A DNA stretch of 64,000 nucleotides from an uncultured Bacillota bacterium (GTDB lineage Bacteria; Sysuimicrobiota; Sysuimicrobiia; Sysuimicrobiales; Segetimicrobiaceae). Shown piece after piece: positions 4,150 to 24,185 of this stretch (position 1 is the stretch's first letter; each line of letters starts with the position of its first letter). The stretch spans positions 716,693 through 780,692 of the forward strand of contig CAWDRG010000009.1 in NCBI GenBank assembly GCA_963804645.1, read 5' to 3'. Both the position numbers and the translations under genes were made by a program. Under the pieces are notes generated by a model. It had not been told where the DNA came from and searched no databases. It was given only the letters and a program-made list of their open reading frames with translations.

Positions 4150-5830
4150 GATCTAATTTAGTTCGCCATGAAAAACGTGGGCGCAAACCCTTGTAAAATC
4201 TGGGTTTCCATGCGCGGTGCGAGCGCAAAATGATAGGATTCCCGACCCGAAGATCGAACTGATGCAACGGCCAAGCAACACCGATTCGACGCTCCTGGGA
4301 GGGAATCCCAATGCCGCTTCTTCGCGCTCCGGTTCCCGGCTCCTGCTCCCGAGGCCGGCCATGTTGAGGCTGCGGGACCCGCAAGGCTCGCTGTGGGATC
4401 AACTCCTCCCCGTCCAAGCGCGGACGCTGAGTGCCGAGTTGACCGCCGTGGATACGTGCTTGGCCGATGAGCGGTTCTTCGAGCCCTACCTGCAGCGCTT
4501 CAACACGCTGATCGGCCGGCCGACCGTCCGGTCGAGACGTACCTGCGCTTGATGTATCTGAAGCATCGGTACCGCCTCGGCTATGAGTCCCTGGTCAAGG
4601 AAGTCACGGACAGCCTGCACTGGCGCCGATTCTGCCATCTGGCGTTGGACGCGCCGGTGCCCGCACGCGACCACGCTGAGCAAGCTGACCCGGAAGTACG
4701 GGCCCGACGTCGTGCACGACTTGAATCGGGCCCTGGTCCAGCGCGCTCGCGAGCACAAGCTCATGCGGTGCCGCAAACTGCGCATGGATACGACGGTGGT
4801 GCAAGCGCCCATCGACTATCCGACGGACATCGGGCTGCTGGCCGACAGTGCGCGGGTCGTGACGCGAACGGTGCGCCAGCTCCAGGCCGCGGGCGTGGCG
4901 GTGCGGACGGGCTTGCGCTCCCGGGCCCGCAGCATCAAGCGCGCGCTGGCCACCGTCGGCCGCAGTTTGCGCATGCGGACGGACGAGGCGAAGCAGGCCG
5001 TGCTCAAGCAGACGGCCCGCGTGCTCACGGGCACGAAACAAATCGGCCGGCAGGCGGAGCGGGTGCTGCGCAACAGTCGGCACGTCGGGCAGCACATCGA
5101 CGCGAAGACGGCCGCGATGGTGAAGCGGACGCGCGTCCGGCTGCGGCGCCAACTCGAGTTGACGGCGCCGGGTCGTCACGCCAAACGCGGACGCGTCTCA
5201 AGGGGACGACGACGATTCCGGATCGGATCGTCAGCGTGTTTGATCCCGAAGCCCGTCCCATCCGCCGCGGCAAGCTGAGCGCGAAGACGGAGTTCGGCTA
5301 CAAGGCGCTGCTCACCGAGACCGAAGATCGGCTGATCACGCACTACGAAGTCCATATGCGAAATCCGGAAGACGGCAGTCTGCTGCCTGCGGCGTATGCG
5401 GGACACACCGAGACGGTGCCGGGGACGCCACACGTCGTCGCCACCGATCGCGGGTTTGGCACCAAAGACAATGAGGCATTTCTTGAACAAGGCCGGCGTG
5501 AAGCAGCATCAGCCTTCCCATAAAGGAAGGACGAGCGCGGCGCGCGCCGCGCATGAACGCCAACGATGGTTCCGTCGACAACAACGATGGCGCAGTGGGC
5601 AGGAAGCGACGATCAGCCTGGGCAGCCGCAAGTATGGATGGCGATACAGTCGATTGCGCGGTCGCAGCTGGTGCCGATACGTGGATCGGGTTCGGAATTC
5701 TGGCCCACAATCTGGACCGAATCGTGGTGTTGGGGACAACGACGATGAGCTTCAGCGCAAACGATCACTTCCACACTGGCCGCGCGAGCGCGTGCAGGCA
5801 CGATCTCGTGTTCGCCACCATTTAAGCCTC
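4150..5830 (+). mobile_element. degenerate IS5/IS1182-family insertion sequence
   Basis: About 1.6 kb carrying an IS5/IS1182-type transposase split over at least three reading frames. Boundaries are approximate; terminal inverted repeats could not be defined by eye. Confidence 0.6.
4361..5830 (+). pseudogene. IS5/IS1182-family DDE transposase, frameshifted pseudogene
   Basis: Hallmarks are spread over frames 2/1/2/1: N-terminal SLWDQLLP...FFEPYLQRF...GRPTV then YLRLMYLKHRYRLGYESLVKEV; mid PHATTLSKLTRKYGPDVVHDLNRAL...MDTTVVQAPIDYPTDIGLL; C-terminal IVSVFDPEARPIRRGK...EFGYKALLTE...ITHYEV...ATDRGFG...ILAHNLDRI. Confidence 0.7.
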
Positions 5831-5939: not shown

Positions 5940-6729
5940 GCAGCTCGTTCACGCCGCGCAGGGTACGGATGTACTGGATACGCGGCGCAGTGGATCACGG
6001 CGCGTGAACTCGCTGAACTGGAACCGGACATCGACCCAAACGTGATCGGCGACGGGCCCGTCATGTTTTTCCGCAACGAAGGGTGGCTTGACCCGGTTCC
6101 GCACACGCACGCAATGCTCTCTGCGGCGATCCGTACGGGTGCTGCGCTCCATACTGGCTCGCGGGTGATCGAAACGCGCATTGAGTGCGGACGCGTGGTG
6201 CAGGTGAAGACCGCGTCTGGCGCGACCTTCAATACCGAGGTCGCAGTGCGCTACGCCGGACGGTGGGTCAGTGACGTGGCCCGTCTCGCCGGGGTGACGA
6301 TCCCACTGGCACCGACCGTCGGGTTGCTCGTCACGACGACTCCGGCTCCCACGTGCCTCCGCCGCATCGTGCTCGTGCCCGATTGCGATCTTCGGCCCGA
6401 CGGCGCCGGCCGGCTGAGGCTGCACATGGAAGACACAGACGCCGATGCTTCCGCCGGCTCAAGACCTCGTTCGCCGGGCCGCCCGGGTGCTGCAGGGGTT
6501 CGACGGAGTCAAGGCGGAAGCGGCCAGAAGCGGCATACGACCAATGCCGGTAGACCGTCACTCGGTGGTCGGGCCGATTCCGGGTGTCGACGGATACTAT
6601 GTGGTGGTGACGCACAGCGCAGTGACACTGGCCGCCTTCCTCGGCCAAGCGGTGGCCGAGGAGATCGCGCATGGCCGTGTCGACGTTCACCTGACGCCCT
6701 TCCGACCGGCGAGGTTCTTTGTGGCGTAG
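5940..6729 (+). pseudogene. FAD-dependent oxidoreductase (DAO family) C-terminal fragment, truncated and frameshifted
   Basis: ELAELEPDIDPNVIGDGPVMFFRNEGWLDPVPHTHAMLSAAIRTGAALHTGSRVIE...VQVKTASGATFNTEVAVRYAGRWVSDVARLAGVTIPLAPTVGLLVTT is typical of the DAO C-terminal half. The C-terminus continues in another frame (GIRPMPVDRHSVVGPIPGVDGYYVVVTHSAVTL...), the N-terminal FAD-binding half is absent, and the fragment abuts the IS. Confidence 0.6.
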
Positions 6730-6970
6730 GAGGGACAGCGATCCGCTCGGAGCCGTGATCGTCGTTCGCAGTTTCAGAAGCGCAGGGACGTCACACCGCA
6801 CGCGCGAAGGAACGCCTAGGCTGCCGTCCCCACCGGGACGTCCTTGCTCGTGGGGCTCGGTTGTGATTGGCGAGATGAGGAGCCCGTCGATATGACGTAC
6901 GAACCTGTCCGGCCAAAGAGTTTTGCGGACCGACGTTCGATCGTCCCGGACCCGGGAGCCCACCGATCCC

Positions 6971-8710
6971 ATGGAATCTAATGAGTCTCATCCATCGACG
7001 AGTCTGGCACCGACATTTCGAGTCCGCGCGCTGGAGATCCACAGTGACTACGCATGGAATTTCGAATGGGTGCAAAAGGCGCTCGCCTTCATGGAACGGC
7101 GGGCGCTCAACGCACTAATCCTCCATCGGAACGACATCGTGGACAATGTCGTGTATCCGGGGCGATATTTCGGGGCCGATCGTCGTCCCTACCGGAACAT
7201 CGTGGAGCGCTACCAGGACAGCTTCAGGACATTGTACCGGTACACGCCGACGCGGCGAAGCCGGCCGCTTCAACATCGGGACTATCTGGTGCGGGTCATC
7301 GAGCAGGCCCGGCGGCGTGGCATCGACGTGTATCTCCAAAATAAGGAGCTGTGGTTTCCGGACATCCTGCTGGAACTCCACCCCGAAGTGTGGATCGACG
7401 GGACCGTCTGCGCCACGCACCCGTTTTGGTGGGAGTTCGTCGAGACGAAATACACCGAGCTGCTGGAGGACTTTCCGGGACTCGCCGGCATCATCACCTC
7501 GCCGGGCACGGGGGAGAGCCGGGTGTCGATCGCCGCGAATCGCTGCGCGTGCGATCGTTGTCGAGCTACCGCACCGCGCGACTGGTATCGCCGGCTGCTG
7601 GACGCCATGCGCGGCCCGATCGTACGCGCCGGGAAGCGCCTCGTGGTTCGAGACTTCGTATTCGACGCCGCGGCGCAGGGCGAATTGGCCGCGGCCATGG
7701 AAACGTTCCCACCAGACGTGGTCGTCTCCCTGAAGAACACGCCCCACGACTACTATCCAACGTTTCCCCACAATCCCCGCATCGGACGCGTTGGGGACCA
7801 TGCGCAGTGGGTCGAGTTTGACGTGATGGGTCAATACTTCGGCTGGGGGCTGGGGATCAGCGTGATGACCGACGACCTGCGCGCGCGGATGCGCTACGGG
7901 CGCGCCCGTGGGGTCTCCGGTGTGATCTTTCGGACCGATTGGGAAGGGCTCGAAGCGCACACGGCGTTCCACACACCGAATCTCCTCAGCCTGTACGCGG
8001 GATCGGCCCTGGCGGTGAATCTCGACACGCCCGCCGCGACGATCGCCGGCGACTGGCTCGACGGAGAAGATCTCCTCCGCCCCGATTTGGACGCCGCCTC
8101 TCGTACCGCCACCGCCGCGCGGGTCGCCGATGCCTTCGGGCGTACCTGGGACATCGTCCGGCGCAGCCTCTATCTCAACGATTGCGTCTTTTCCGACTCC
8201 AGCCTGTACCCCGTCAGCCTCGAACACGCGTGGTGGCTGGCGGAAGAGAAGAACAGTTTGCGCAACTGGGATCCGTCGAAATCGGACGCGCTCTCGGTCG
8301 TCGACGAGGCGCACGTTCGTGCGCTGCTCGAGGAGAAGGACGAGGCCGTCCGGTTGGTCGCCTGGCTGGCCGATGCGGTGGGCGAGCTTCAGGACGTGCT
8401 GACCGACGCCGCGTGGCGCGACCTCCAGTGGCGCGTTGATGTCTTTCGACGTTACGTCTTGGGATTTCGCACGATCGCGCACGCCTGCGTCCTGACGAAG
8501 TACCTCGCCGACGAGGCGGGGCGCGCCCGAGTCCCATTTGCCGACACGGCGGATGCGTTGTGGCAGGCGCGGCTCGGCGACCTCCGGGCGCTCGCCGCCG
8601 AATTCGACGAGTTCGCGGCGGCGACGTCGCTGCCGTACACGGTCTATCTGGTTCTGAATCCCGAACGCCTGCGAGCGCTCGCGAACGACCTCGAGGCTCG
8701 GCGAAGGTAG
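6971..8710 (+). CDS. uncharacterised ~580-aa protein, paralog A (putative TIM-barrel glycosidase-like; conserved C...CxCxxC)
   Basis: Long ORF, about 70% identical to paralog C and about 35-40% to paralog B in this window. Shared motifs HRNDIVD, GRYFG, NKELWFPD, SPGTGESR-x9-CACDRC, RLVVRDFVFD, KNTPHDYYPTFP, GQYFGWG, RGVSGVIFRTDWE. Start is taken at MESNESHP by alignment with paralog C; the alternative ATG at 6923 cannot be excluded. Confidence 0.7.
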   Translation: MESNESHPSTSLAPTFRVRALEIHSDYAWNFEWVQKALAFMERRALNALILHRNDIVDNVVYPGRYFGADRRPYRNIVERYQDSFRTLYRYTPTRRSRPLQHRDYLVRVIEQARRRGIDVYLQNKELWFPDILLELHPEVWIDGTVCATHPFWWEFVETKYTELLEDFPGLAGIITSPGTGESRVSIAANRCACDRCRATAPRDWYRRLLDAMRGPIVRAGKRLVVRDFVFDAAAQGELAAAMETFPPDVVVSLKNTPHDYYPTFPHNPRIGRVGDHAQWVEFDVMGQYFGWGLGISVMTDDLRARMRYGRARGVSGVIFRTDWEGLEAHTAFHTPNLLSLYAGSALAVNLDTPAATIAGDWLDGEDLLRPDLDAASRTATAARVADAFGRTWDIVRRSLYLNDCVFSDSSLYPVSLEHAWWLAEEKNSLRNWDPSKSDALSVVDEAHVRALLEEKDEAVRLVAWLADAVGELQDVLTDAAWRDLQWRVDVFRRYVLGFRTIAHACVLTKYLADEAGRARVPFADTADALWQARLGDLRALAAEFDEFAAATSLPYTVYLVLNPERLRALANDLEARRR

Positions 8711-8756
8711 GGGTCCCGCCGTCGCGGCGTTCGCGGCGCGCGGCGGCCGACGTATC

Positions 8757-10379
8757 CTATGGGGCGCGGTACACCGCGAGGCCGTCCTCCAACACGGTGC
8801 GGGCACGGCCCAGACTCAGCAACATCCTGAACTGATGCGGGTACTGGTGACGCTCGAGCGTTGGGGCCAGGCCCGTGAGATACTCGTCGAGGGCCCGCAG
8901 GCTCGCTGCCAGCGCGGTGTCCACGCTCGCGCGCGTCAGCGCTCCTTGACGCAACCCCTCGACGTAGAGGCTCACCTCCGTCAGCGCACGGAACCCGGCG
9001 ATGTACTGGACATACCATCCGAAACACTCCCGCAGCCATGCGTGAAACTCGGCCGGAATCGCACCCGACGAATGCTCCACCTCGCGGCGGAGCGCCGTGA
9101 TCTCCGACATGGCCTCGTCCTTCTCCGCCAACGCCGCGTCGATCCCGGAGGCATCCATTCGAAGATCGTTCGCTCTGGCCGGGTCCCAATCGACCAGCGA
9201 GTGCTTCCGCTCCATCGTCCACCATGCCTTACGCACGCTCAGCGGAAACTGACTGCTGTCGTGAAACACAAAATCTCGAAGGTAGATTCCTTTGCGGATC
9301 ACCGCCCAGGTGCGGTCCCACACCCCGGCCACGAAGCTGGCGGTATCCGCGTCAGCGGGCCACCCAGCTTCCTCCAGCCACGTCCGCAGGATCGATGCCG
9401 CGGGGGCGTCGTCGCCGCCCGCCAGTCGTGCCGCGGCGATCAGGTTCGCGCGGTTGGGCGTCTCGAGACACCACCAGTCGTTGACGCGCTCCCATTCGGT
9501 GCGGAAGAGGGCGCCGCTCACGCCCCTGGACTGAGCGTGGCGGAGGCGCTGCGCGAGATCGTCGCGCATGAAGACCGGAAAGACCCCCCATCCGTAGAAC
9601 TGCCCGTACACATCGTATTCCACCCACTGCTCGCGGCGCAGGGCGCCGATCGCCGGGTTGTCGGGAAACGTCGGGTAGAAATCGTGCGGGGTCACCTTCA
9701 TGCAGAAGATGACGTCGGCGGGGGCACGATTGACCGCCTCCGTGAGGGGACGGTGATCGGCCGGTCGGTAGGCGAAGTCCCGCACCGCCAAGCGGAGCCC
9801 CGCGTGCGCCAACGGGGCGTACACGCTGGCGATGATCTGCTCATACCAATCCGCGAGGGTCGTGTGCTCGCAGAGCGGACATCGACACTTGTGCTGCGCT
9901 CTCGAGGCGCGCCCCTCCGGGGAGCCGGGGCTCATGATCACGCCCGCCAACTGCGGGAAGTCCTCGGCCAGCTCGGTGAACTTCGCCCCGAGAAACTCGA
10001 ACCACACCGGCTCCGACGGGCAGATGCGTCCGTCTTTCAGCAGATGCGGGAAGCGCTCGAGCACCTCGTCGGGGAACGTCAGCTCCTTCAGTTCGAGCCA
10101 CACCGGGATGTCCTGGCGCGCCGCCAGTTCGAGAATCGACGTCAAGTAGGCGCGATTGTTGTGGATCGCGTTCTCGCCGCGACGCACTGGGGTGCTGTCC
10201 CATTCCGTGTACGGGTCGAAGTAGCGCTTCGGGAAGATAAGGCGTGGCCCGAGATCGGTATCGTGGAGGACGAGCGCGTTGAGATCGTGGCGCTTGGCGA
10301 AGGTGAGCGCTTCCACGATCCGCGGCCGCTCCCACATCCTCGTCCCGCAGAGCTCAAGACCCCGAAACTTCAGCGGCAC
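8757..10379 (-). CDS. uncharacterised ~540-aa protein, paralog B (same family as 6971-8710 and 12118-13839)
   Basis: GTG start with AGGAGG 6 nt upstream. Conserved NALVLHDTDL, KRYF, LKELTFPDEV, SPGSPEGR-x9-CRCPLC, LRLAVRDFAY, KVTPHDFYPTFP, GQFYGWG, RGVSGALFRTEWE. Convergent with paralog A. Confidence 0.7.
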   Translation of the reverse strand: MPLKFRGLELCGTRMWERPRIVEALTFAKRHDLNALVLHDTDLGPRLIFPKRYFDPYTEWDSTPVRRGENAIHNNRAYLTSILELAARQDIPVWLELKELTFPDEVLERFPHLLKDGRICPSEPVWFEFLGAKFTELAEDFPQLAGVIMSPGSPEGRASRAQHKCRCPLCEHTTLADWYEQIIASVYAPLAHAGLRLAVRDFAYRPADHRPLTEAVNRAPADVIFCMKVTPHDFYPTFPDNPAIGALRREQWVEYDVYGQFYGWGVFPVFMRDDLAQRLRHAQSRGVSGALFRTEWERVNDWWCLETPNRANLIAAARLAGGDDAPAASILRTWLEEAGWPADADTASFVAGVWDRTWAVIRKGIYLRDFVFHDSSQFPLSVRKAWWTMERKHSLVDWDPARANDLRMDASGIDAALAEKDEAMSEITALRREVEHSSGAIPAEFHAWLRECFGWYVQYIAGFRALTEVSLYVEGLRQGALTRASVDTALAASLRALDEYLTGLAPTLERHQYPHQFRMLLSLGRARTVLEDGLAVYRAP

Positions 10380-10389
10380 ACCGCGCCTC

Positions 10390-11226
10390 CTATCTCAGCG
10401 TCCCGACGGTAAAGCCGTGCAGCATGTACCGGCGCAGCAGCAGGGCAAAGGTCAGGACCGGCAGGATGGTCAGGCACCCGGCGGCCGCGACGATGCCCCA
10501 ATTGAGCTGCTCTTCCATCTCCATGAACGAGAGGATGGAGACCGGCGCGGTCACCGCGTTGAAGTTCGTCAGGACCAGCGCCGCGAGAAACGAGTTCCAG
10601 ATGTCGATGAACGACAGGATCGCCACCGCGACCAACCCCGGAGTGGCGAGGGGCATGACGATCCGGAAGAACGCGCCGATGAGGCCGCATCCGTCCACTT
10701 CGGCGGCGTCGATCAGTTCGCCGGGCACGGTCCGAAAGAACCCCAGCATGATCCAGATTACGAACGGGAGCCGCACCGCGACCTCGAACGCGGTCAGGGT
10801 CGAGACCCGGTCGATCAGGCCGAGCGCCCGCACGGCGAAATAGACCGGAATGATCGTGGCAACCGGCGGAAACCCATTCGGTATCAGTACCGCCAGCAGC
10901 AGCCACCACCGTTTGCCCCGGAACGGCAGGCGGGCGAACGCGAAGGCGACCATCGCGCCCAGCACGACCGCGGCGGCCGTGCCCCACACGGAGACGTTGA
11001 TGCTGTTCAGATAGTAGCGGCCGAACCCCGACTGGATCAGCTGCACGTAGTTCGTGAGCGTCGGCGGGAACCAGAACCGCGGCGGCTGCAGGAGGAGCAC
11101 CCGGTCGGGTTTCAACGACGTGAGTAGCATGTAGTAGATCGGGAACAGCGTGACGAGGACCACGAGGACCACGAGCCCGATCACCCCGGCGCCACGGAAC
11201 GTCCACCGCCGCCCGCGCCGCGTCAC
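10390..11226 (-). CDS. carbohydrate ABC transporter permease (MalG-like)
   Basis: Six-TM permease with the EAA-like loop (IDAAEVDGCGLIGAFFRIVMPL). GTG start with GAGGG SD, 11 nt after the upstream permease stop. Confidence 0.8.
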   Translation of the reverse strand: MTRRGRRWTFRGAGVIGLVVLVVLVTLFPIYYMLLTSLKPDRVLLLQPPRFWFPPTLTNYVQLIQSGFGRYYLNSINVSVWGTAAAVVLGAMVAFAFARLPFRGKRWWLLLAVLIPNGFPPVATIIPVYFAVRALGLIDRVSTLTAFEVAVRLPFVIWIMLGFFRTVPGELIDAAEVDGCGLIGAFFRIVMPLATPGLVAVAILSFIDIWNSFLAALVLTNFNAVTAPVSILSFMEMEEQLNWGIVAAAGCLTILPVLTFALLLRRYMLHGFTVGTLR

Positions 11227-11236
11227 CGCCGGACCC

Positions 11237-12121
11237 TCATTCGGCCTCGACCAGCCGCAGGTATAGAACATACAGCAGCACGAGCACGCCGAGCGATACC
11301 ACGACCATCGCCGCGGCGCTCCCCATCTGGAAGAACTGGAACGCCGCTTTGAAGATGTGCACGCTGAGCATGTCCGTCGCGTTTCCGGGCCCGCCCCCGG
11401 TCATCACAAAGGGCTCGGCGAACAGGCGAAACGCCTCCATCGCGCGCAACAGCGCGGCGACCAGCAGCGTGTCGAAGATCACCGGCACCGTCACGCGGGT
11501 AAAGCACCCCCACCGCGAGGCCCCGTCGAGCTGCGCCGCCTCGTAGAGTGCGCCCGGCACGGTTTCGAGCGCGGACAGGCTCAGCAGAAACGTGAACGGC
11601 GTCCAGTGCCAGACGTCCATCAGCATCACCGAAACGAGCGCCAGCCGCGTGCTGGTCAGCCAGGCCACGCCCGGCAGCCCGAGTAGCCGCAGGCCGGCGT
11701 TGATTGGACCGAGGGTGTCGTTGAAGAGGATGTACCAGATGAGTCCGACCACTGCCGGCGTGATTACCATCGGGGAGATCACGACCGTCTTCAGCAGGTC
11801 GTTGGCGCGCGCGCCCCCGTGAACGAAGACGGCGAGCGCGAGCCCCAGGGTGACCTCGACCACCGTGACGACGACCATGAAGCCCAGCGTGCGGCCGATC
11901 GAGCCGACAAACGCGGGATCGGCCGCCAGTTGGAGGTAGTTCTGCACGCCGGCGAACACCGGCGACGACTGCTCTTGCAGGTTCCAGGTCGTCAGGCTGA
12001 GGTAAATCGTGTACAGCGCCGGCAGGATGCGCCCAACGACCAGGTACGCCATCCCGGGTACGAGGAAAAACCACAGCGCGAGATCTCGCCGCCGCCGGAC
12101 CGAGACCGCCGGCGCAATCAC
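11237..12121 (-). CDS. carbohydrate ABC transporter permease (MalF-like)
   Basis: TM-rich with the ABC permease signature (YEAAQLDGASRWGCFTRVTVPVI). GTG start overlaps the stop of the upstream paralog C gene (GTGA), indicating translational coupling. Confidence 0.8.
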   Translation of the reverse strand: MIAPAVSVRRRRDLALWFFLVPGMAYLVVGRILPALYTIYLSLTTWNLQEQSSPVFAGVQNYLQLAADPAFVGSIGRTLGFMVVVTVVEVTLGLALAVFVHGGARANDLLKTVVISPMVITPAVVGLIWYILFNDTLGPINAGLRLLGLPGVAWLTSTRLALVSVMLMDVWHWTPFTFLLSLSALETVPGALYEAAQLDGASRWGCFTRVTVPVIFDTLLVAALLRAMEAFRLFAEPFVMTGGGPGNATDMLSVHIFKAAFQFFQMGSAAAMVVVSLGVLVLLYVLYLRLVEAE

Positions 12122-13839
12122 CGAAGGCGCGCCCGCAGGTCGTCCGCCAGCGCCCGGAGGCGCTCCGGGCTGAGCAGGATGTAGACTACGTGGGACAAGG
12201 ACGTGGATTGCGCCAACGCGTCGAACTCGGCCGCGAGCGCCTCGAGGTCGCTGAGCCGCGCATCGAGGGTCTTCCGCGCCTCGTGGACCCACTGTACGCG
12301 GTCGCCGGCGCCGTCCTCAGTGACCGCCTTGGTCAGGACGCAGGCGTGTCCGGCGGCGCGAAACGCGGCCGTATACCGGCGGAACACGTCGAAGCGGGTC
12401 ACGAGATCCCCGTGCGCGCTGTCGCTCAAGACGTCACCGAGGTCCGCGACCTCCGCGCAGAGCCTCTCAACCAGGCGCAGCGCGTCATCCTTCTCCTCGA
12501 GCAGGCGGCGGACGTTGTCGGGGTCGTCGACCCGGAGCGCGCCCGCCCGGGATGGATCCCAGTCCTTCAGGCTGTTCTTTTCTTCCGCCAGCCACCACGC
12601 GTGGTCCAGGCTGACCGGCAGGTTGCTGGAGTCCGAGAAGACGCAGTCGTTCATGTACAGGCTCCGCCGCACAATCTCCCAGGTTTGATCGAGCACGCGC
12701 GCGACGCGGTCCGCCGCGGCCAGCCGGACCGCGGGCGCCAGGCCCGGGCGCAGGAGGTTCTCCTGGTCGAGCCATTGCCCGACAACCGCGGCCCCGGGCG
12801 TTTCCAGATCCTGGGCGAGCGCGGCACCGGCATAGAGGCTGACCACGTTCGGGCTATGAAACGTCGTGTGCGCTTCGAGCCCTTCCCAGTCGGTGCGGAA
12901 CACCACGCCGCTGGCTCCGCAGGCGCGCGCATGGCGGAAGCGCACGCGGAGATCCTCCGTCATCACGGCGATCCCGATGCCCCAACCGAAATACTGACCC
13001 AACACGTCGAACTCGATCCACTGTTCGTGGGCGCCCACCCGTCCGATCCGGGGATTGTTGGGGAACGTCGGGTAGTAGTCGTGGGGTGTGTTCTTGAGTT
13101 CGATGACCACGTCTGCCGGCAGCGCCTCCATGGCGGCTACGATCTCGGCCTGTGCCGCCGCGTCGAAGACGAAGTCCCGCACTACGAGGCGCTTGCCCAC
13201 CCGCGCGATCGGCTCGTACATCGCTTCGAGCAGCTGCCGATACCATTCCCGGGGCGTGGTGGAGCGGCACCGTGCGCAGGTGCACCGGTTCGCCGAGATC
13301 GAAACGCGGCTCTCCCCGGTTGCGGGCGAGGTAATGATCCCTGCCAGCCCGGGCAGGTCTTCAAACAACTCCGTGTACTTCGTCCGGACGAACTCCCACC
13401 AAAACGGGGCAGTCGCGCACACCGTGCCGTTCTTCCAGAGGTCCGAGTGCAGTTCGAGCAGGATCTCCGGGAACCATAACTCTTTATTCTGGAGATACAC
13501 GTCGATGCCGTAGCGGTGGGCTTCGTGGACGACCCGCCGCAGATAGTCGCGCCGCTGCAACGGTCCACTGCGCCGCGTCGGCGTATACCGGTACAACGTG
13601 CGGTACATGTCTTGATACCGCTCGAAGATGTTGCGATACGTCCGCCGGTCCGCGCCGAAATATCGCCCCGGGAACACCACCTGATCGATGATGTCGTTCC
13701 GCTGCAGGGCTAGCGCGTTGAGGCCGTGCGCCTGCGCGAATCGGAGTGCTCGCTGCACCCAGGGAAAATCCCATACGTACTCGCTGTTGATTTCGAGCAG
13801 CCGGGTACGAAACACGGGCTCCGTTTCGCTGGTTTCCAT
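12118..13839 (-). CDS. uncharacterised ~575-aa protein, paralog C (same family)
   Basis: METSETEP start. LQRNDIIDQ, GRYFGADRR, NKELWFPE, SPATGESR-x9-CTCARC, RLVVRDFVFD, KNTPHDYYPTFPNNP, GQYFGWG, RACGASGVVFRTDWE. First gene after the solute-binding protein in the operon. Confidence 0.75.
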   Translation of the reverse strand: METSETEPVFRTRLLEINSEYVWDFPWVQRALRFAQAHGLNALALQRNDIIDQVVFPGRYFGADRRTYRNIFERYQDMYRTLYRYTPTRRSGPLQRRDYLRRVVHEAHRYGIDVYLQNKELWFPEILLELHSDLWKNGTVCATAPFWWEFVRTKYTELFEDLPGLAGIITSPATGESRVSISANRCTCARCRSTTPREWYRQLLEAMYEPIARVGKRLVVRDFVFDAAAQAEIVAAMEALPADVVIELKNTPHDYYPTFPNNPRIGRVGAHEQWIEFDVLGQYFGWGIGIAVMTEDLRVRFRHARACGASGVVFRTDWEGLEAHTTFHSPNVVSLYAGAALAQDLETPGAAVVGQWLDQENLLRPGLAPAVRLAAADRVARVLDQTWEIVRRSLYMNDCVFSDSSNLPVSLDHAWWLAEEKNSLKDWDPSRAGALRVDDPDNVRRLLEEKDDALRLVERLCAEVADLGDVLSDSAHGDLVTRFDVFRRYTAAFRAAGHACVLTKAVTEDGAGDRVQWVHEARKTLDARLSDLEALAAEFDALAQSTSLSHVVYILLSPERLRALADDLRARLR

Positions 13840-13867
13840 GTGCGTTCGACGCGCCAACCGCGCGTCC

Positions 13868-15271
13868 TTAGGAGAGCTTGATCGTATCCAGAGTGGTTTG
13901 AATCTGCCGCTGCGCGGTGCTCAAGGCGCTCTGGATGTTACCGCCGGTTAGCACCGACGAAATCGCCGTGCTGACCTGGTCGGCGATTTCCTGCGCGCGG
14001 AGGATGCTCGGATACGGCAGGACGCCCACGTCGGTTTGGGCGCCTGGATCGGCTTCCGCCCGGAGCACGTATCCGGCCGCAGGGTACTGCGCGATGGTCG
14101 CCTCGATCGCACGCGCGCGGCTCGGCATGTACCCGGGATGCTTCTTGGCCATGTCCACCTGTGCCTCCGTGGTCGAGGCCGCGATCAGCAGCTGCAGGGC
14201 GGCGGCTTTGTGCTCGGACCGCGACGACACGGCAATCACGCCCGGGCCGTCCCGGAAGGCATGCTTCCATCCCCGAGGGTGGTTCGGCTCCGCAGGGGGC
14301 AGCGCGTAGCCGATTTTCCCGTATACGGGCACGTCCGGCTTGATCGTGTTGAGCACCACGCGGTCAAAGTACTGCACGATCATCGCGGCGTGACCGCTCG
14401 CGAACAGGGCCGTGGATTCCGCGCTGCTGTCGTTGAGGTTGCTCGACGGCTGGATGGCCAGCAGGGCCTTGTACATCTGGGCGGCCGCGAGGCCGTTCGG
14501 CCCGTCAAACTCAGCCTTGCGGGTGCGCGGATTGTACAGATTGATCCCGTACGCGAGGATCATGTTCTCGTAACTGTGCCACAGATATACGCCCTTCTTG
14601 TTCGGGAACGCGCTCCCGTAGAAATCGGCATCGAGCGGCTTCCCCGCGAGCAGCTCGCCCCGCTTGCGGGTGAAGAACTGACCGATTTCCAGGAACTGCT
14701 GGTAGCTATTGGGCGGGGCGAGATCGTACCCGAAGCGTGCTTTGAACGCGGCTCGTTCGCGGGGATCCTCAAACAGATCCAGCCGATACGCCACCGCCGG
14801 CGTGCTCGTGGTCGTCGGGATTCCCAGGGTCCTATTCTGGAATCTGACCGCTCGCTGCGCCGCCTGCGTGAATTCGGGCCACGCAAGCGTGCTTTGGCTC
14901 CCGGTGCTCGCGATCAGGCCGTCCAGCACGTCGATCATCCCGCGATTGTAGAACTCGTACATGTTCTGAACGCCGAGGGTATAGATCAGATCCCAGGTGT
15001 TCGCGCCGCTGACAAAGTCGAGGACCACCTTTTGCGTCAGTTCGTCGCCGTTGAGGAATCGGGCCTGCAGGATCATCCCCAAGGTCTTCGCAATCTCGCT
15101 CATCTTATCGGCGAGCGCGACCTCGTGGACCTCAGGCGACGTGATGAAGTTGATCGTGACGCCTTGGAACTGTCCTTTCGGCTGTGCCGTAACCGGCCCA
15201 GGGGTCACCCCTGCGACCACGGCGGCCCCGCTCGCGCCGACTGCAAGCTTCAAGAGCGTCCGTCGGTCCAT
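13868..15271 (-). CDS. ABC transporter substrate-binding protein (family 1, sugar-type) with Tat-like signal
   Basis: MDRRTLLKLAVGASGAAVVAG twin-arginine-type signal peptide, followed by a family-1 extracellular solute-binding domain. Confidence 0.8.
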   Translation of the reverse strand: MDRRTLLKLAVGASGAAVVAGVTPGPVTAQPKGQFQGVTINFITSPEVHEVALADKMSEIAKTLGMILQARFLNGDELTQKVVLDFVSGANTWDLIYTLGVQNMYEFYNRGMIDVLDGLIASTGSQSTLAWPEFTQAAQRAVRFQNRTLGIPTTTSTPAVAYRLDLFEDPRERAAFKARFGYDLAPPNSYQQFLEIGQFFTRKRGELLAGKPLDADFYGSAFPNKKGVYLWHSYENMILAYGINLYNPRTRKAEFDGPNGLAAAQMYKALLAIQPSSNLNDSSAESTALFASGHAAMIVQYFDRVVLNTIKPDVPVYGKIGYALPPAEPNHPRGWKHAFRDGPGVIAVSSRSEHKAAALQLLIAASTTEAQVDMAKKHPGYMPSRARAIEATIAQYPAAGYVLRAEADPGAQTDVGVLPYPSILRAQEIADQVSTAISSVLTGGNIQSALSTAQRQIQTTLDTIKLS

Positions 15272-15599
15272 TGTCCGCGTCGCCACTGCCTTCACCCCAT
15301 TCATCGGCAGGTCTGCACGCCACTTAAAAACATGCTACCGGGTGCCGTTGGAACCTCATATCGGATCGCGACCTGATTTGCCCGTACGATGCCCGCCCCA
15401 TGCCATGCTCGGCCGGGATCGTGTCCAATCGTGTCCATTAGAAGCGCCCACCGCAGGCCACAACGATTCCAGAGACCGAGGCAATCGTCGAGCGTGCCCG
15501 GCGGATCTTGCGGTGGCTACTCTGATGCTGATATTCTGAATTAGGAAGCTGCAAGATCAGCCCGGGGGGCCCGCCGCCATTTACCTGGATCTGCAGGTT

Positions 15600-17605: not shown

Positions 17606-18295
17606 TCAACCGGCGCTGATGAACTCGCATCCCTGCTCGCGCAGCCCGCGTTCGATGTTGGCAATATTGGTGACGTCGCCGCGTCGCAACACATCTTGGA
17701 CGCCGGCATAGTGTCCCAGCAACTTCTGCGTCTCCTCGGCGATCTGTGCCGCGTCGGCAGCCCGCACGGCCACGATGCCGTCGAGGTCGGCCACGATGAT
17801 ATCCCCGGGATGGACGACCACGTGTCCGCACGCGATCGGTACGTTCACCTCACCCGGACCGTCGATTGGTCCCATCATCGCCGACACGCCCCGGGCGAAG
17901 ACTGGGAGTCCGTCCTCCTGAATTTCCGTGACGTCGCGCACGGCGCCGTCCATGACAACCCCGGCCAGCCCCCGGTGCAGTAATCCCCGGCAGACGTTCC
18001 CGCCGATGAGCGCTCCGCGAAGGCTTCCGCGGGCGTTGATGACAAGCACGTCGCCGCGGCGGGTCTGCTGCATTGCGGCTTTGATCACATTGAAGGCTCC
18101 GGTTGGCACCGAGACCGTGACGGCGGACCCAATCACCCGCCCCATCGGGCGGTAGGCCGCTTGAATTCCGTTGTCCATGGTGCCAGCCCGATTCATCGCG
18201 TCCGAAATATCCGGCGTGCGCAGTCCGGCAAACTTCGCCAAGAGCGTCGGCTCGGCGCGCAGCGCGGTCGCGTACACACGAAATCCTACTGGCAT
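17606..18295 (-). CDS. RraA-family protein (4-hydroxy-4-methyl-2-oxoglutarate aldolase / oxaloacetate decarboxylase-like)
   Basis: RraA/MenG-like fold signature. Start is at MPVGFRV (codon 54 of the 17606-18454 ORF). Confidence 0.7.
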   Translation of the reverse strand: MPVGFRVYATALRAEPTLLAKFAGLRTPDISDAMNRAGTMDNGIQAAYRPMGRVIGSAVTVSVPTGAFNVIKAAMQQTRRGDVLVINARGSLRGALIGGNVCRGLLHRGLAGVVMDGAVRDVTEIQEDGLPVFARGVSAMMGPIDGPGEVNVPIACGHVVVHPGDIIVADLDGIVAVRAADAAQIAEETQKLLGHYAGVQDVLRRGDVTNIANIERGLREQGCEFISAG

Positions 18296-18450
18296 CTCAG
18301 CCTCCTCTACCTCGCAGTTTGGCTCCGTCCGATCCATGCTCGCTCGCGGTGTTGCGCGTCGGTGACGCTGAGGGAGCCTACGGGGGCCTGCAGCGCCGGG
18401 GCAGATTCCGGCGGCGTGGCGGAGTTGTACGACGAACACTCCGTTCCATG

Positions 18451-19332
18451 TCATCCACTCCGCTTCAAGCGCGGGTCTAGCGCGTCCCGAAGTCCGTCAC
18501 CCATCAAGTTGAAGCTGACGGCCACCACGAGAATGGCGAGCCCCGGAAACGTGATCAGTAACGGTGCGCTCGTAATGAAATTCCTCGCCGTCGACAGCAT
18601 CGCGCCCCACTCCGGCGTGGGAGGCTGTGGACCGAGGCCGAGAAAGCTCAAACTCGAGGCCGTGAGCATTGCCGTGGCAAGCAACAGGGTGGTCTGGACG
18701 ATTAAGGGAGGGACGATGTTCGGGGCCACGTGACGCAGCATAATGCGCCCGGGTCCCGCACCCATGGCCGTGGCGGCGAGCGTATACTCCTCTGCTTTGA
18801 CGACCAAGGTAGAGCCGCGGGCAACCCGGGCGAACGCCGGAATCGAATACATGCCGACGGCGATCATGACGTTGGTCGTGCCGACGCCCAGCGCTGCGAT
18901 GATGCCGATGGCCAGCAGAAAGCCCGGGAGCGCCATGAGGATATCGAGCACGCGGGACAGCACCGCATCCACCGCGCGCCCGAAGTACCCGGCTGCAAGC
19001 CCCGCGAGTGCGCCGATCGGCAGGGCTAACGCCACGGCTCCAATGGTGATGAACAACGTCTCGCGAGACCCCACGATGATCCGCGAAAGAAGATCACGTC
19101 CCAATTCGTCGGTCCCGAGCCAATGGCTGCGCGAGGGCCACTGGAGCTGATGTCCGAGACTGATCGACGTCGTCGAGTAGGGAGCGAGCGAGGTGGCAAA
19201 GCATGCGGTCAGCAGAACCACTCCGATCACGATCATCCCGGCTGCGGCCGGGCGATGGCGCAGAAATTGCCGCGCTGCGATCCTCGCATACGAGGTGGGC
19301 GGCGCGGGCGGCGTGCCGTAGGTGCCGATCAT
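18451..19332 (-). CDS. ABC transporter permease, DppC/OppC-like
   Basis: TM-rich with the binding-protein-dependent transport signature. N-terminal start is uncertain. Confidence 0.75.
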   Translation of the reverse strand: MIGTYGTPPAPPTSYARIAARQFLRHRPAAAGMIVIGVVLLTACFATSLAPYSTTSISLGHQLQWPSRSHWLGTDELGRDLLSRIIVGSRETLFITIGAVALALPIGALAGLAAGYFGRAVDAVLSRVLDILMALPGFLLAIGIIAALGVGTTNVMIAVGMYSIPAFARVARGSTLVVKAEEYTLAATAMGAGPGRIMLRHVAPNIVPPLIVQTTLLLATAMLTASSLSFLGLGPQPPTPEWGAMLSTARNFITSAPLLITFPGLAILVVAVSFNLMGDGLRDALDPRLKRSG

Positions 19333-19443
19333 GGGCCGCGGCGGCTGCGGCCCAACCGCGCGCCGAACCTGACCCGACGCGGGAGTGTTCCCGCGCCCGG
19401 CGGGACGGCCCGCGGGGGGCAGCTCGTTCCGTCCCGCATCGGA

Positions 19444-20364
19444 CTAGTCGTAGCGGACACGGGGATCGAGGTACGCGTACAAGACGTCGACGGCGGCGTT
19501 CATCACCACAAAGGCTGCGCCGAGGATCATCAACCCGCCCTGCACCACCGGAAAATCACGCGACCGGATCGCGTCCACGAGCATGCGTCCCAATCCCGGG
19601 CGAGAAAACACGGTCTCGGTCACGACCGCGCCGCCGAGGAGGTATCCAAACTGCAGACTGATCACGGTCACGACCGGGACGAGCGCGTTGCGAAGTGCAT
19701 GCCGGAAAATCACGGCGCGTACCGAAAGGCCTTTGGCGCGCGCCGTGCGTGTGAAGTCCTGCCGGATGACTTCAAGCAGACTCGAGCGCGTCATCCGCGC
19801 AATGATCGCGACGGAGGCTGCGCCGAGCGCCAACGCCGGAAGCACCAGCGCGCGGATGCCAGCCGCACCGCCTGTTGGGAACCAGCGGAGCTCCACGGAG
19901 AACAAGAAGATCATCATCAACCCGACCCAAAAGATCGGCAGCGATACCCCGAGCAGCGCGCCTACCATCGCCACATGATCCACGAACGAATACTGATACG
20001 TCGCAGACACCACCCCGATGATCACCCCGAGCACGGTCGCCAACACCATCGCGGCCGTGGCCAACTCGGTTGTCGGCCAGATCCGGCTGCGAATCTCCGT
20101 AATCACCGGGCGGCGCGTGATGATGGACCGGCCGAGATCGCCCCGAACGACGCGGCTCGCCCACAGTTCGTACTGCACATACAGCGGCTTGTTCAGGCCG
20201 AGATTGACCCGAATTTGTTGGATGTCCGCGGGGGCCGCGTCTTCTCCGGCGAGGACAAACGCCGGATCACCGGGCGCGAGATGCAGCAGCCCGAACACGA
20301 TCAACGAGATCGCCACCATGACCGGAACGACATACAGGAGCCGACGGAGAACGACCCGGTGCAT
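19444..20364 (-). CDS. ABC transporter permease, DppB/OppB-like
   Basis: 306 aa, six TM helices, conserved permease loop (ARAKGLSVRAVIFRHALRNAL). Confidence 0.8.
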   Translation of the reverse strand: MHRVVLRRLLYVVPVMVAISLIVFGLLHLAPGDPAFVLAGEDAAPADIQQIRVNLGLNKPLYVQYELWASRVVRGDLGRSIITRRPVITEIRSRIWPTTELATAAMVLATVLGVIIGVVSATYQYSFVDHVAMVGALLGVSLPIFWVGLMMIFLFSVELRWFPTGGAAGIRALVLPALALGAASVAIIARMTRSSLLEVIRQDFTRTARAKGLSVRAVIFRHALRNALVPVVTVISLQFGYLLGGAVVTETVFSRPGLGRMLVDAIRSRDFPVVQGGLMILGAAFVVMNAAVDVLYAYLDPRVRYD

Positions 20365-20449
20365 CAGCGGGCGCGCGAGACGCCGCCATAGCGTTGCCGG
20401 ACGAGGCCGTATGCCCTCGGCCGGCGGTGGACGGCCATCGCGGAAACGC

Positions 20450-22000
20450 CTATTTGGTGACGTTCGTCAATCGTAAGTCCCCGATCGGCAGATAATCGTA
20501 GCCCTGCACGCCCTTGCGCGTGGCCAGGAGGTTTGCTCGAATGAACACCCAGACGAACGGGGCGTCATCCCAAATCAAGCGCTGCGCCTCGGCGTAGGGT
20601 GGTTTGCGCGCGTTCAAGTCGAACGTGGAACGCCCTTTGGTGATGGCGGCATCGACGCCGGGATCGCAGTAGCCGGACCGCGAGTCACTCTGGGGGATCG
20701 ATGTCGCGGCGCATGTAAACAGCCGGTACAGATGAAAGTCGAGATAGGCGCTCGACCGGATCTGCATACTCGTCCATCCCGCCATCGTATCGGGATCTCG
20801 CTGCAGATAGTCGCCCAGTCCCGGATTGTCCGTCGTACGAAGATTGATCTTAATCCCGACGGCGGCCCAGTTGGCCTGCATCGCCTCAACGACCTGCTCG
20901 TCACCGGCCCACCGTCCGGGGACGTAGAACAGGTTGCCCTCAAAACCGTTCGGATATCCCGCGCCCGCCAAGAGCTGTTTCGCCTTCGCCGGGTCGTACG
21001 TGTAGGGGCTGAACGCCACGTAGCCCCACGCGCCCGGTAGCCCTGGGCCATCCGGCACCCGTCCGGCCCCATGCATGATGTTCTTGATGATGCCTTCCTT
21101 GTCGATCGCGTAGTTCATGGCCTGCCGCACGGCCTTGATGCTGAACGGTGGCTTGGATTGGCGCATCTCCGACGTCACGTGCACGAGCGAGTCCGTCTGA
21201 ATGACGACGATGTTCGGATCCGCCCGCAGGGAGTTGAGGTCCCCCGGCGCCACGTTCATCGCCATGTCAATTTCTCCGGTCTTCAGCATCGCGCTCCGCG
21301 CCGCGTCCTCGGGAACCTGCCGATAGATGATCTGAGGAATCTTGGGCGTCCCGCGCCAGTAGTCGGGATTCGCGACGAATGTCAGATGATCGTTTGGGAC
21401 CCATTCGACAAACCGGTACGGTCCGGTACCGACTGGATGATGTCCAAAGTCGGCCACACCGTATTTCTTGAGCGCCGTCGGGCTGACGATCAACGCGGTC
21501 TGGTCCATCAACAGGAACGGCAGGTCGGGAAACGGCTGCGCCGTGATGATCTGGACGGTGTACGGATCGACCACCCGGACTTCTTTGATGATCAGGAAGA
21601 CCGCCCGCCGGTAGGCTCCGGTGGCCGGGTCGTTGATCGAATCTAGGGTGACTTTGACGGCGTTCGCGTTGAACGGCGTCCCGTCCTGGAATTTGACGTT
21701 TCTCCTGAGGTGAAACGTCCAGGTGACGTTGTCCGGGCCGACCCCCCAGGACGTCGCCAGGCCAAACCTCGGATCGGGTTCCATCTTCGCGTTGAAGCCG
21801 ACCAGCGGATCGTATAAGAGGTAGAAGAGCGAGCCTGGCGGCCCGATGCCAGGAGGCGGATAGAGCCCGATCGGCTCGCTTCCGTCGGCAAAAATGAGGG
21901 TCGATTGGAACAGCGGAGCAGTGGCCCCAACAGCAGTGAGGACCAGCGGGACCAGCATGATCGCGATGACCTTCCACAGCCTCGACACCAGCCGAGACAA
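20450..22000 (-). CDS. ABC transporter substrate-binding protein, family 5 (peptide/nickel/oligosaccharide type)
   Basis: 516 aa with N-terminal signal/TM. Family-5 motifs present (FHLRRNVKFQDGTPFNANAV, HPVGTGPYRFVEW). Confidence 0.85.
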   Translation of the reverse strand: MSRLVSRLWKVIAIMLVPLVLTAVGATAPLFQSTLIFADGSEPIGLYPPPGIGPPGSLFYLLYDPLVGFNAKMEPDPRFGLATSWGVGPDNVTWTFHLRRNVKFQDGTPFNANAVKVTLDSINDPATGAYRRAVFLIIKEVRVVDPYTVQIITAQPFPDLPFLLMDQTALIVSPTALKKYGVADFGHHPVGTGPYRFVEWVPNDHLTFVANPDYWRGTPKIPQIIYRQVPEDAARSAMLKTGEIDMAMNVAPGDLNSLRADPNIVVIQTDSLVHVTSEMRQSKPPFSIKAVRQAMNYAIDKEGIIKNIMHGAGRVPDGPGLPGAWGYVAFSPYTYDPAKAKQLLAGAGYPNGFEGNLFYVPGRWAGDEQVVEAMQANWAAVGIKINLRTTDNPGLGDYLQRDPDTMAGWTSMQIRSSAYLDFHLYRLFTCAATSIPQSDSRSGYCDPGVDAAITKGRSTFDLNARKPPYAEAQRLIWDDAPFVWVFIRANLLATRKGVQGYDYLPIGDLRLTNVTK

Positions 22001-22295
22001 GGGACACAGCCCCCTTTCGATGCCAGTCGCTAGGATTGGTGCAGACGGTTCGCCAGGGCGCCACGTCCTCCTGCCGCGCGATGATCGGCCAGAGATTAGG
22101 TGGGCAGCGCGCGGCGGTTGGCACCGATGATGACTCGTGACTTGGCATTCTCTCGCGCGAGATGCCGTGAGTGCGAAGGGTTCGGCGGACTCCTGTCCCC
22201 GGTGATATTGTCAAACGGTGGGGCCCAGGAGGGCGCGCCAATCTCTGGTCGTGTGCGGGCAGGCTGAGATATTGCAGCGGAGGAGATGCGAATCC

Positions 22296-23183
22296 ATGAA
22301 GATCACACAGCTGGGCAGTGGAACACCGACGCCATCGCTCGTTCGCGCGGGCTCGGGCTACTTGGTGGAGGTGGGCGATGATGTGATCGTCATTGATCAC
22401 GGGCCCGGCGCCCACCACCGGCTGCTGCAGACCGGCAAGCGCGCGGTGGACGTCACGCACCTGTTTTTCAGCCATCTCCACTACGATCACTGCTGCGACT
22501 ACGCGCGTCTGCTGCTCACGCGCTGGGACCAGGGGGCCGATCTCATTCCCGAGCTCAAGGTGTACGGGCCGGCCCATACGCAGCGGATGACCTCGCTCTT
22601 GTTCGAGCCCGGCGGCGTGTTCGGCCCGGATCTGAACGCGCGCATCAACCATCAAGGCAGCATTGACATCTTCGAGAAGCGGGGCGGGAAGCCGCCGCGG
22701 AAGTGGCCGAAGCCGGACGTGACCGTCGTGAAGCCCGGCGCGGTCATCGACGGCGAGCGCTGGCGCGTGACCGTCGCGGAGTCGTCGCACGTGCAGCCTT
22801 ATCTCGAATGCTTCGCATACCGATTTGACACCGAGGAAGGCTCGCTCTGCTACTCCGGCGACAGCGGTGGCGTGTGCCCGAGCGTCGTCAAACTCGCGCA
22901 GGGATGCGACGTCCTGATTCACATGAACCACTACATGAGCGGTACGGAACCGACGGCCGCCTATCGCGCCGCGTGCGGCAATCATCTCGATACGGCTGAG
23001 GTGGCGAAGCAGGCGGGCGTGAAGACCTTGGTGCTGACTCACATGCTCGAGCAGATCGACCATCCGGGCGTACGCGAGCGGATCCTGCGCGAGATGATGG
23101 CCATCTATCCGGGGGACATCATCTGGGGTGCCGACCTCATGGAGTTCACGCTCGCCGGTCCGCGGCTCGGGAACATGGAATAG
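22296..23183 (+). CDS. MBL-fold metallo-hydrolase
   Basis: HxHxDH motif (SHLHYDHCCD) and downstream His/Asp ligands. GGAGGA SD precedes MKITQLGSG. Confidence 0.75.
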   Translation: MKITQLGSGTPTPSLVRAGSGYLVEVGDDVIVIDHGPGAHHRLLQTGKRAVDVTHLFFSHLHYDHCCDYARLLLTRWDQGADLIPELKVYGPAHTQRMTSLLFEPGGVFGPDLNARINHQGSIDIFEKRGGKPPRKWPKPDVTVVKPGAVIDGERWRVTVAESSHVQPYLECFAYRFDTEEGSLCYSGDSGGVCPSVVKLAQGCDVLIHMNHYMSGTEPTAAYRAACGNHLDTAEVAKQAGVKTLVLTHMLEQIDHPGVRERILREMMAIYPGDIIWGADLMEFTLAGPRLGNME

Positions 23184-23249
23184 CGGCGCCCACGGTACAC
23201 GTCCGCGGCCGCCGCTTCACCGCGCCGCGGTCAGGATCCCGCCGGGCCG

Positions 23250-24185
23250 TCAGACCTGAGCCAGCGGGGCCGGGGTGAATCCGATCTCGTCGAGCGCGGT
23301 GCGCAGCCGGAGTCCCACGGCGTCATTCAACTCGACCAGCGGCGGGCGGACGGTCCGCCACCGCGGCTCGTTCTTCCAGACGGCGAGCAGATACTTCTGC
23401 GCGACGATCTGCCCGAACTCTTGAATCTTCAACCGGAGCTTCTTGACGGACTCGTGCAGTTGTTTGGCTTCGGCTTCCCTGCCGCTCCGCTGGAGCTCGA
23501 TCGCCTTCGCGATCTGCGTGGCATTGATGTTGGCGGTCGCGGTGATGCACCCGGCCGCGCCGAGCGCCAGCGCCTCGAACAGCGGCAGTTCCGAGCCCGG
23601 ATAGACGATGAGCCCGGGGACTTCGGTCAGGAGGCGCCGGGTATTGGCCCAGTCGCCCGAGCTATCCTTGATGCCGACGATCTGCGCCGGGAACGCCGAG
23701 TGGAGCCGCTGCACCAGCTCGATCGACAGGCCGACGTGAGCGACCGGCGGAATGTGGTACAGGTAGATGTGGAGGTCATTCGAGCCCACGCGCTCGATGA
23801 GGCGAGCGTAATACGCGAACAAGCCGTCGTCGGTGACATCCTTGATGTAAAACGGGGGCAGCACCATCGCTCCCGCACACCCACGGTCGACCGCATGGCG
23901 GGTCAGCCGCGCCGTGTCGATCAGGTTCGTCAGACCCGTCCCCGGAATCAGCCGCTTCGGATCGACGCCGCGGTCGATCAACCGATCGAGGGCCCCGATG
24001 CGCTCGTCGATGCCGGCCGACAGCGCCTCCCCCGTCGTCCCGAACGGGGCCAGCCCCGCGCATCCCGTCGCGAGCAGGTGCCGCGCGTGGTCGACGTAGA
24101 GGTCCAGCGCGATCGAGAGATCGTCGTTGAACGGGGTCAGGGTCGGTGCGATTACGCCACGAATCGGCTCAACTCGGGCTGCCAT
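23250..24185 (-). CDS. dihydrodipicolinate synthase-family lyase (DapA/KDG-aldolase-like)
   Basis: DapA-family TIM-barrel signature (GVIAPTLTPF, FGTTGE, Schiff-base Lys region IVGIKDSSGD). Confidence 0.8.
   Translation of the reverse strand: MAARVEPIRGVIAPTLTPFNDDLSIALDLYVDHARHLLATGCAGLAPFGTTGEALSAGIDERIGALDRLIDRGVDPKRLIPGTGLTNLIDTARLTRHAVDRGCAGAMVLPPFYIKDVTDDGLFAYYARLIERVGSNDLHIYLYHIPPVAHVGLSIELVQRLHSAFPAQIVGIKDSSGDWANTRRLLTEVPGLIVYPGSELPLFEALALGAAGCITATANINATQIAKAIELQRSGREAEAKQLHESVKKLRLKIQEFGQIVAQKYLLAVWKNEPRWRTVRPPLVELNDAVGLRLRTALDEIGFTPAPLAQV

Follow-up and report, generated by a model that had tools for sequence, protein, structure and literature searches.

In glycoside hydrolase (GH) family GH42, the zinc site of Gal42 and Bca-β-gal is made up of four cysteines, Cys113, Cys153, Cys155 and Cys158, arranged around the acid/base residue Glu148; the catalytic domain is stabilised by the zinc, and conservation of the cluster does not extend throughout GH42 (PMC8573354). 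Here we describe a comparable four-cysteine motif in three paralogous proteins, A, B and C, encoded in a 64,000-nucleotide stretch of DNA (hereafter the window) from an uncultured Bacillota bacterium, contig CAWDRG010000009.1. Our comparisons lead us to think it rather probable that the cysteines form a structural Zn(Cys)4 clamp, set beside the acid on the fourth barrel strand, in an unnamed family of GH67-like cytoplasmic barrels that are probable glycosidases. GH67 enzymes themselves are intracellular and are encoded beside an ATP-binding cassette (ABC) importer of the CUT1 type, as in the Geobacillus aldouronate cluster, an arrangement shared by the genes of the present family.

An invariant four-cysteine motif

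Paralog A, a type 1 member of the family, is encoded on the plus strand by the open reading frame (ORF) 6923-8710, giving 595 amino acids (aa) from a TTG codon at 6923, and it is to this form that residue numbers for paralog A refer. Paralogs B (type 2; 8757-10379, 540 aa) and C (type 1; 12118-13857, 579 aa) lie on the minus strand. A and C are 68% identical, while B shares 38% identity with either. All three contain the motif Cys-x34-Glu-x9-CxCxxC with identical spacing: from the first cysteine (Cys1) it is 35 residues to the Glu and 45 to the CxCxxC triad, the Glu lying 10 residues ahead of the latter. In paralog A the motif comprises Cys163 (DGTVC; 7409-7411, plus strand), the first candidate metal ligand, Glu198 (SPGTGESR; 7514-7516), the candidate general acid in the β4-α4 loop, and CACDRC at residues 208-213, contributing Cys208, Cys210 and Cys213 (7544-7561). 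The corresponding elements on the minus strand are, for paralog B, Cys120 (DGRIC; 10020-10022), Glu155 (SPGSPEGR; 9915-9917) and CRCPLC at residues 165-170 (Cys165, Cys167 and Cys170; 9870-9887) and, for paralog C, Cys147 (NGTVC; 13417-13419), Glu182 (SPATGESR; 13312-13314) and CTCARC at residues 192-197 (Cys192, Cys194 and Cys197; 13267-13284). A preliminary description of this DNA had placed one Cys about 45 residues before the triad in all three copies, with a conserved Glu between them. That separation proves to be exact, the short sequences quoted there match, and the interval given, 7350-7580, spans the whole motif of paralog A. The exclusion of a radical-SAM protein holds as well: the paralogs contain no CxxxCxxC motif, CxCxxC being their only cluster, and this reading was dropped since the motif is the wrong one.

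The paralogs contain six (A) or eight (B and C) cysteines in total, yet the only Cys columns common to all three are these four. Each of the four columns is occupied by Cys in all of 123 sequences, namely the three paralogs and 120 database homologues with identities of 48-90%, and the complete set is present in 125 of the 128 full-length family genes found at the 88 genomic loci that were compared. The conservation of the four cysteines is real and far beyond chance, and the motif is functionally constrained.

Predicted fold and surroundings of the motif

Structures of A and B were modelled with AlphaFold2 (AF2) using a 64-sequence alignment, yielding predicted local distance difference test (pLDDT) values of 90.6 and 91.7, and predicted template modelling (pTM) scores of 0.90 and 0.91, respectively. 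As the preliminary description had supposed, the predicted fold is a TIM barrel: both models contain eight β/α units in a (β/α)8 arrangement, followed by an all-helical C-terminal domain of around 220 residues. The strands in paralog A are β1 34-40, β2 64-69, β3 135-140, β4 189-192, β5 239-243, β6 267-271, β7 295-300 and β8 333-337. In both models Cys1 is located in the β3-α3 loop and the triad in the adjoining β4-α4 loop, the two loops being predicted to lie side by side on the barrel's C-terminal (catalytic) face. More precisely, in the model of A, Cys163 ends a small hairpin within the β3-α3 loop, Glu198 lies six residues past β4, and the knuckle formed by the triad is positioned at the N-terminus of a short helix (211-215) ahead of α4. 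Block pLDDT values across the motif segments are 88-95. A Glu in the segment following β4 is found in 81 of 85 superfamily representatives, consistent with the earlier proposal that this residue would be situated at the end of that strand.

No N-terminal signal sequence is visible when the N-termini are read directly. We therefore take the proteins to be cytoplasmic, with their thiols reduced, and the absence of a signal peptide likewise led us to drop extracellular disulfides as an explanation.

Cysteine-less relatives

When 1.84 billion cluster representatives (50%-identity clusters) were searched with a profile, 884 relatives were obtained, 568 of them at E<=1e-10. Of the representatives listed, 86 cover the region; all four cysteines are present in 58 of these and none in 24, leaving just four, including one fragment, with a partial set. 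The Cys-less relatives retain Glu142, Arg243, Lys271, Asp276, Glu298 and Arg337. Three core-family paralogs from Acetobacteraceae illustrate the loss within the family proper: Cys1 is replaced by Asp and a six-residue deletion takes out CxCxxC exactly, with SPGTRESKVSI and every other invariant residue, the catalytic candidates included, remaining in place. The length of the segment from β4 to Trp221 is 26-31 residues in Cys-bearing members, compared to 13-41 in those without. Since relatives that have no cysteines retain the other invariant residues, the cysteines themselves are not catalytic, and a catalytic cysteine was discarded as a candidate on these grounds. The all-or-none pattern indicates that they act as one dispensable unit, and a metal site would account for a module that is separable and non-catalytic and of use only when its ligands are complete.

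Distant relatives, whether Cys-bearing or Cys-less, include fusion proteins. P0201 (1367 aa) is joined to an α/β-hydrolase resembling glucuronoyl and acetyl-xylan esterases (CE15/AXE-like), and P0217 (843 aa) to a lyase of the DHDPS family.

Comparison with the GH42 zinc site

The likeness to the GH42 site that had been suggested for this 1+3 arrangement of cysteines extends to their order, their topology and, nearly, their spacing. In GH42 (Thermus A4, PDB code 1KWG; Bacillus circulans, 3TTS; Gal42), as in the present family, one Cys follows β3 and CxCxxC follows β4, so that the β4 Glu is bracketed. The separation of Cys1 and Glu is 35 residues in both, and that of Glu and triad is 5-8 residues in GH42, values drawn also from GH42 PDB sequences, compared to 10 here. 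The site is dispensable within each of the two families.

Profiles for GH42 were constructed from four PDB barrels and, at greater depth, from these plus 120 database sequences (124 in all). Comparison of the family with the deeper profile using hhalign produced a single confident region, family residues 120-224 (P 2.5e-4, probability 43%), in which Cys1, the Glu and CxCxxC are superposed in register and where both families have a CPNxP consensus after Cys1. With all Cys masked the same register was picked, but the probability dropped to 1.7% (P 0.03), and the GH42 signal therefore rests mainly on the cysteines. Elsewhere the barrel aligns to GH42 at zero confidence, and this applies also to Glu298 on β7 (295-300), the strand that in GH42 has the nucleophile Glu of the ME motif at its end; Glu298 lies outside the confident region. 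Within the GH42 alignment itself, Ser mostly replaces the final Cys of CxCxxC (96 of 124 sequences), and Cys is conserved instead at the third position past the acid/base Glu (112 of 124), so that many GH42 enzymes may use a different fourth ligand.

The further suggestion that these proteins might be distant relatives of clan GH-A is not borne out. GH42 enzymes belong to that clan, bear NEY as acid/base motif and ME as nucleophile motif, and are trimeric, with the additional domains PF08532 and PF08533 (trimerisation and C-terminal). Here, none of the three paralogs matches PF02449 (Glyco_hydro_42), even at a threshold of E<=1, and nor do 64 family members; Pfam returns no match to PF08532 or PF08533, the C-terminal 220 residues being all-helical; and no NE(Y) motif is present, since the sequences SPGTGE, SPGSPE and SPATGE lack an Asn before the Glu, which moreover occurs six residues past the strand. 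Membership of GH42 or of clan GH-A is thus not supported, the relatives detectable by sequence or structure being GH67 and GH138. In sum, the preliminary description holds as regards the barrel fold, where the Glu lies and the likeness of the site to that of GH42, but not as regards the clan. The site nevertheless resembles that of GH42 and, by analogy, may work in the same way.

Relationship to GH67 and other barrels

The family profile matches the GH67 enzyme AguA of Geobacillus at E 4.4e-4. In this alignment SLK271NTPHD276 is paired with IK359NGPMD364 and Glu298 with Glu386 of GH67, Asp276 thereby corresponding to the Asp of the GH67 base pair Asp364 + Glu392. Foldseek searches with the models of A and B ranked GH67 first, followed by GH138. 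E values ranged from ~1e-14 to 1e-12, and the alignments, ~580-630 columns long, took in the helical domain as well. The Pfam model GH67M gives scores of 13.5 bits for A and 12.9 for C, below its cut-off of 23.5, and does not match B. The distant relatives P0225 (29.4) and P0217 (25.4) do exceed this gathering cut-off, which places the GH67 link at the superfamily level, and a third, P0222, carries GH67N- and GH67C-like pieces. In a transitive alignment through P0225, Glu198 falls at most one or two positions away from Glu285 (AguA numbering), the acid of GH67.

The combination of barrel and helical C-terminal domain is common to the family and to GH67 (AguA of Geobacillus stearothermophilus, 1K9D/1K9E/1MQR; GlcA67A of Cellvibrio japonicus, 1GQL/1H41). 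Both also have a Glu 4-6 residues after β4, the acid Glu285 in GH67 and its putative equivalent, Glu198, in paralog A. In contrast, the N-terminal β-sandwich domain of GH67 (PF03648) is absent, the barrel beginning at residue 34 in A and at residue 5 in B. The invariant set of the family includes Glu38, His68/Asp71, Lys141-Glu142, Arg243-Asp244, His275, Asp300 and Arg337-x-Asp/Glu-Trp-Glu341, of which Glu142 and the R337-x-D/E-W-E341 motif are additions relative to GH67, and the four-cysteine site is likewise absent from the GH67 sequences compared. The GH67 α-glucuronidases are thus the nearest characterised family, and the present family is distinct from them.

Other barrels are less closely comparable. 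The GH138 α-galacturonidase (BT0997 homologue, 6HZE/6HZF) has a barrel and C-terminal helical domain in common with the family but is larger and contains extra domains, and no sequence-level match to GH138 was obtained, even from the 806-aa distant relative P0222. Assignment of the Cys-bearing distant relatives of 750-806 aa to GH138 was accordingly rejected, P0222 matching GH67 only, and weakly. As regards the DUF4838/GH163/GH185 and GH20/GH84 barrels, PF16126 is not matched by the window proteins or their close homologues. An adjacent D-E or D-D catalytic pair is typical of substrate-assisted hexosaminidases; none is evident after β4 in the family. Pfam and NCBIfam contain nothing that scores above cut-off for A, B or C, and a single-sequence search of the PDB with paralog A found nothing meaningful.

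Nature and role of the site

We favour a single tetrathiolate metal site, most likely structural Zn(Cys)4, as the explanation of the four invariant cysteines. The metal would tie the β3-α3 loop, through Cys163, to the β4-α4 loop, through Cys208, Cys210 and Cys213. The latter loop opens with the candidate general acid Glu198, and the metal would maintain the shape of this loop, as well as that of one active-site wall, while having no part in the chemistry. The acid would be Glu198, and the base side would be furnished by Asp276 together with Glu298 and/or Glu341; these catalytic roles, like the substrate class considered below, we infer. That the four thiolates converge is suggested by the topology of the models together with the all-or-none presence or loss of the cysteines, and zinc is the metal to which analogy points: the GH42 zinc site is the sole structurally documented precedent of this topology, which favours a structural Zn(Cys)4.

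Some observations weigh against this explanation. The GH67 base Glu392 corresponds to Gln304 in all 128 family genes (Glu is found in distant relatives), so that the GH67-type mechanism is not transferable unchanged. The solved GH67, GH138 and GH115 structures that were matched by sequence all lack such a site, and its sole structural precedent therefore comes from an unrelated or very remotely related family. Furthermore, zinc, iron and an Fe-S cluster are not distinguishable from sequence alone. An iron site next to the active site, whether [4Fe-4S], [2Fe-2S] or a rubredoxin-like Fe(Cys)4, and whether structural or concerned with redox or oxygen sensing, would be in keeping with the joint loss of the four cysteines, with the cytoplasmic location of the proteins and with the abundance of the family in anaerobes such as Clostridia and Spirochaetes. 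The family is, however, equally common in strict aerobes (Microvirga, Devosia, Paenibacillus, Alicyclobacillus, Acetobacteraceae), genes for Fe-S assembly or redox partners do not recur in the 88 neighbourhoods, the CxCxxC spacing is very tight, and where a TIM-barrel glycosidase is known to have it the metal is zinc, so that we judge iron to be decidedly unlikely. Still less credible is a redox switch in which reversible disulfides of C210-x-x-C213 and C163/C208 gate the Glu198 loop. The triad does include a CxxC element close to the candidate acid, but two cysteines would be enough for a simple switch, yet four are lost as a block; the length of the site is rigidly conserved, the GH42 precedent is a metal site, and cytoplasmic proteins are normally reduced.

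Direct participation of the metal or of a thiolate in catalysis also merits consideration, given that 10 residues separate the cluster from the candidate acid and that it occupies the barrel's catalytic face. A zinc-activated Cys nucleophile is found in the GH127 β-L-arabinofuranosidase, and a zinc ion acting as Lewis acid is the other form that such participation might take. Yet Cys-less relatives, the three core-family paralogs among them, retain every other invariant polar residue, and a full tetrathiolate shell would offer no open coordination site; a catalytic role thus seems extremely improbable. The remaining alternatives relate to origin and function. Inheritance of the site from a common ancestor with GH42, which would make the family a true remote relative within clan GH-A, appears unlikely to us; masking of the cysteines leaves the register of the GH42 alignment in place but not its significance. 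We are similarly doubtful of the broader proposition that these are a new GH family or non-hydrolytic barrel enzymes acting on a small acidic glycoside brought in by sugar-type ABC or tripartite tricarboxylate import, with the four cysteines exerting metal- or redox-responsive control of the acid loop or persisting as a relic of a shared GH42/GH67-like ancestor.

Genomic context and likely function

The family is found in soil, gut and hot-environment bacteria from at least eight phyla, and at the 88 loci the family gene almost always lies beside an importer. CUT1 ABC permeases are encoded in 42 loci and solute-binding proteins (SBPs) in about 39, while components of the tripartite tricarboxylate transporter occur as TctC in 22 and as TctA in 18. 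The usual arrangement of the Tct genes is LysR, family gene, TctB, TctA, TctC in Alphaproteobacteria, a compact unit seen in L003, L005, L017, L018, L024 and others; the coupling of a glycosidase-like barrel to a tripartite tricarboxylate transporter is unusual. A short-chain dehydrogenase is encoded immediately downstream of the family gene in 23 of the loci, a D-2-hydroxyacid dehydrogenase is found in nine and a GDSL esterase in six. Fifteen loci contain a 690-aa ADP-ribosylglycohydrolase-like protein (L072, at 7689-9758; L063, L068, L069, L074, L076, L078 and L080-L088). Its N-terminal half corresponds to PF03747, the C-terminal half being unassigned, and its gene immediately follows those of the more divergent family members, often with a GDSL esterase next. 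No polysaccharide-degrading partner recurs across the 88 loci.

Two to five paralogs are present in 30 of the 88 loci. There are at least three subfamilies, type 1 (A and C), type 2 (B) and type 3, all having the full residue set. Rows of four or five paralogs drawn from three subfamilies, with the invariant set complete, occur in L007 (8001-16352), L042, L016 and L025.

Most likely, the enzymes are glycosidases acting on a small imported glycoside, which probably bears a carboxylate. Several considerations point to such a substrate: the association with tricarboxylate-type transporters; the fact that the closest folds (GH67, GH138 and GH115) belong to uronidases; the basic invariant residues, of which Lys271 aligns with GH67 Lys359/360, a carboxylate ligand in that family; and the fusion of distant relatives to a CE15/AXE-like esterase and a DHDPS-family lyase. 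The recurrent grouping of an importer with one to five paralogs, often accompanied by a gene for a short-chain dehydrogenase, a 2-hydroxyacid dehydrogenase or the ADP-ribosylglycohydrolase-like protein, suggests an uncharacterised pathway by which a small acidic glycoside is broken down.

Neither a zinc site in a GH67-like family nor the present family itself was found to be described in our searches of the literature, and the papers on DUF4838/GH185 mention neither zinc nor cysteine. A GH42-style clamp of cysteines and metal would thus be present in a different barrel lineage, one that is covered by neither Pfam nor NCBIfam models and that has no solved structure. What would be new is the host family and the occurrence of a GH42-type site outside GH42, the kind of site being already known. 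The naturally Cys-less paralogs allow comparison with their Cys-bearing counterparts, and the annotation of such genes could move from "hypothetical proteins" to "GH67-like barrel, probable zinc-binding glycosidase".

Gene organisation in the window

As at other loci, the paralogs in the window accompany an importer. On the minus strand, the operon begins with a CUT1-type solute-binding protein (SBP_bac_1; 13868-15304) and continues with paralog C, a MalF/UgpA/GlcT-like ABC permease (11237-12292), a MalG/UgpE/GlcU-like ABC permease (10390-11271) and paralog B. Paralog A is convergent to this operon. Its TTG start (window 6923-6973) is probably wrong, the likely true start being the ATG at 6971, which has GGGAG just ahead of it and gives a protein of 579 aa. 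This is the length of P0001, the closest homologue of paralog A (90% identity), and AF2 pLDDT values fall below 50 over residues 1-20 of the long form.

Directly upstream of paralog A, at 6042-6758, are fragments of a DAO-like FAD-dependent oxidoreductase in two frames, the gene probably being truncated or frameshifted. Beside it, at 4217-5523, are pieces of an ISNCY/IS5-like transposase. They fall in two frames that overlap (ORFs 4549-5523 and 4583-5278), suggesting that this insertion-sequence remnant is frameshifted or degenerate. Downstream, the genes at 17606-24185 include an RraA-like aldolase, a DHDPS-family lyase and a peptide-type ABC importer (OppB/C-like permeases plus SBP_bac_5). 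Between 42000 and 52000, the G+C content of the window climbs from ~0.64-0.68 to ~0.73.

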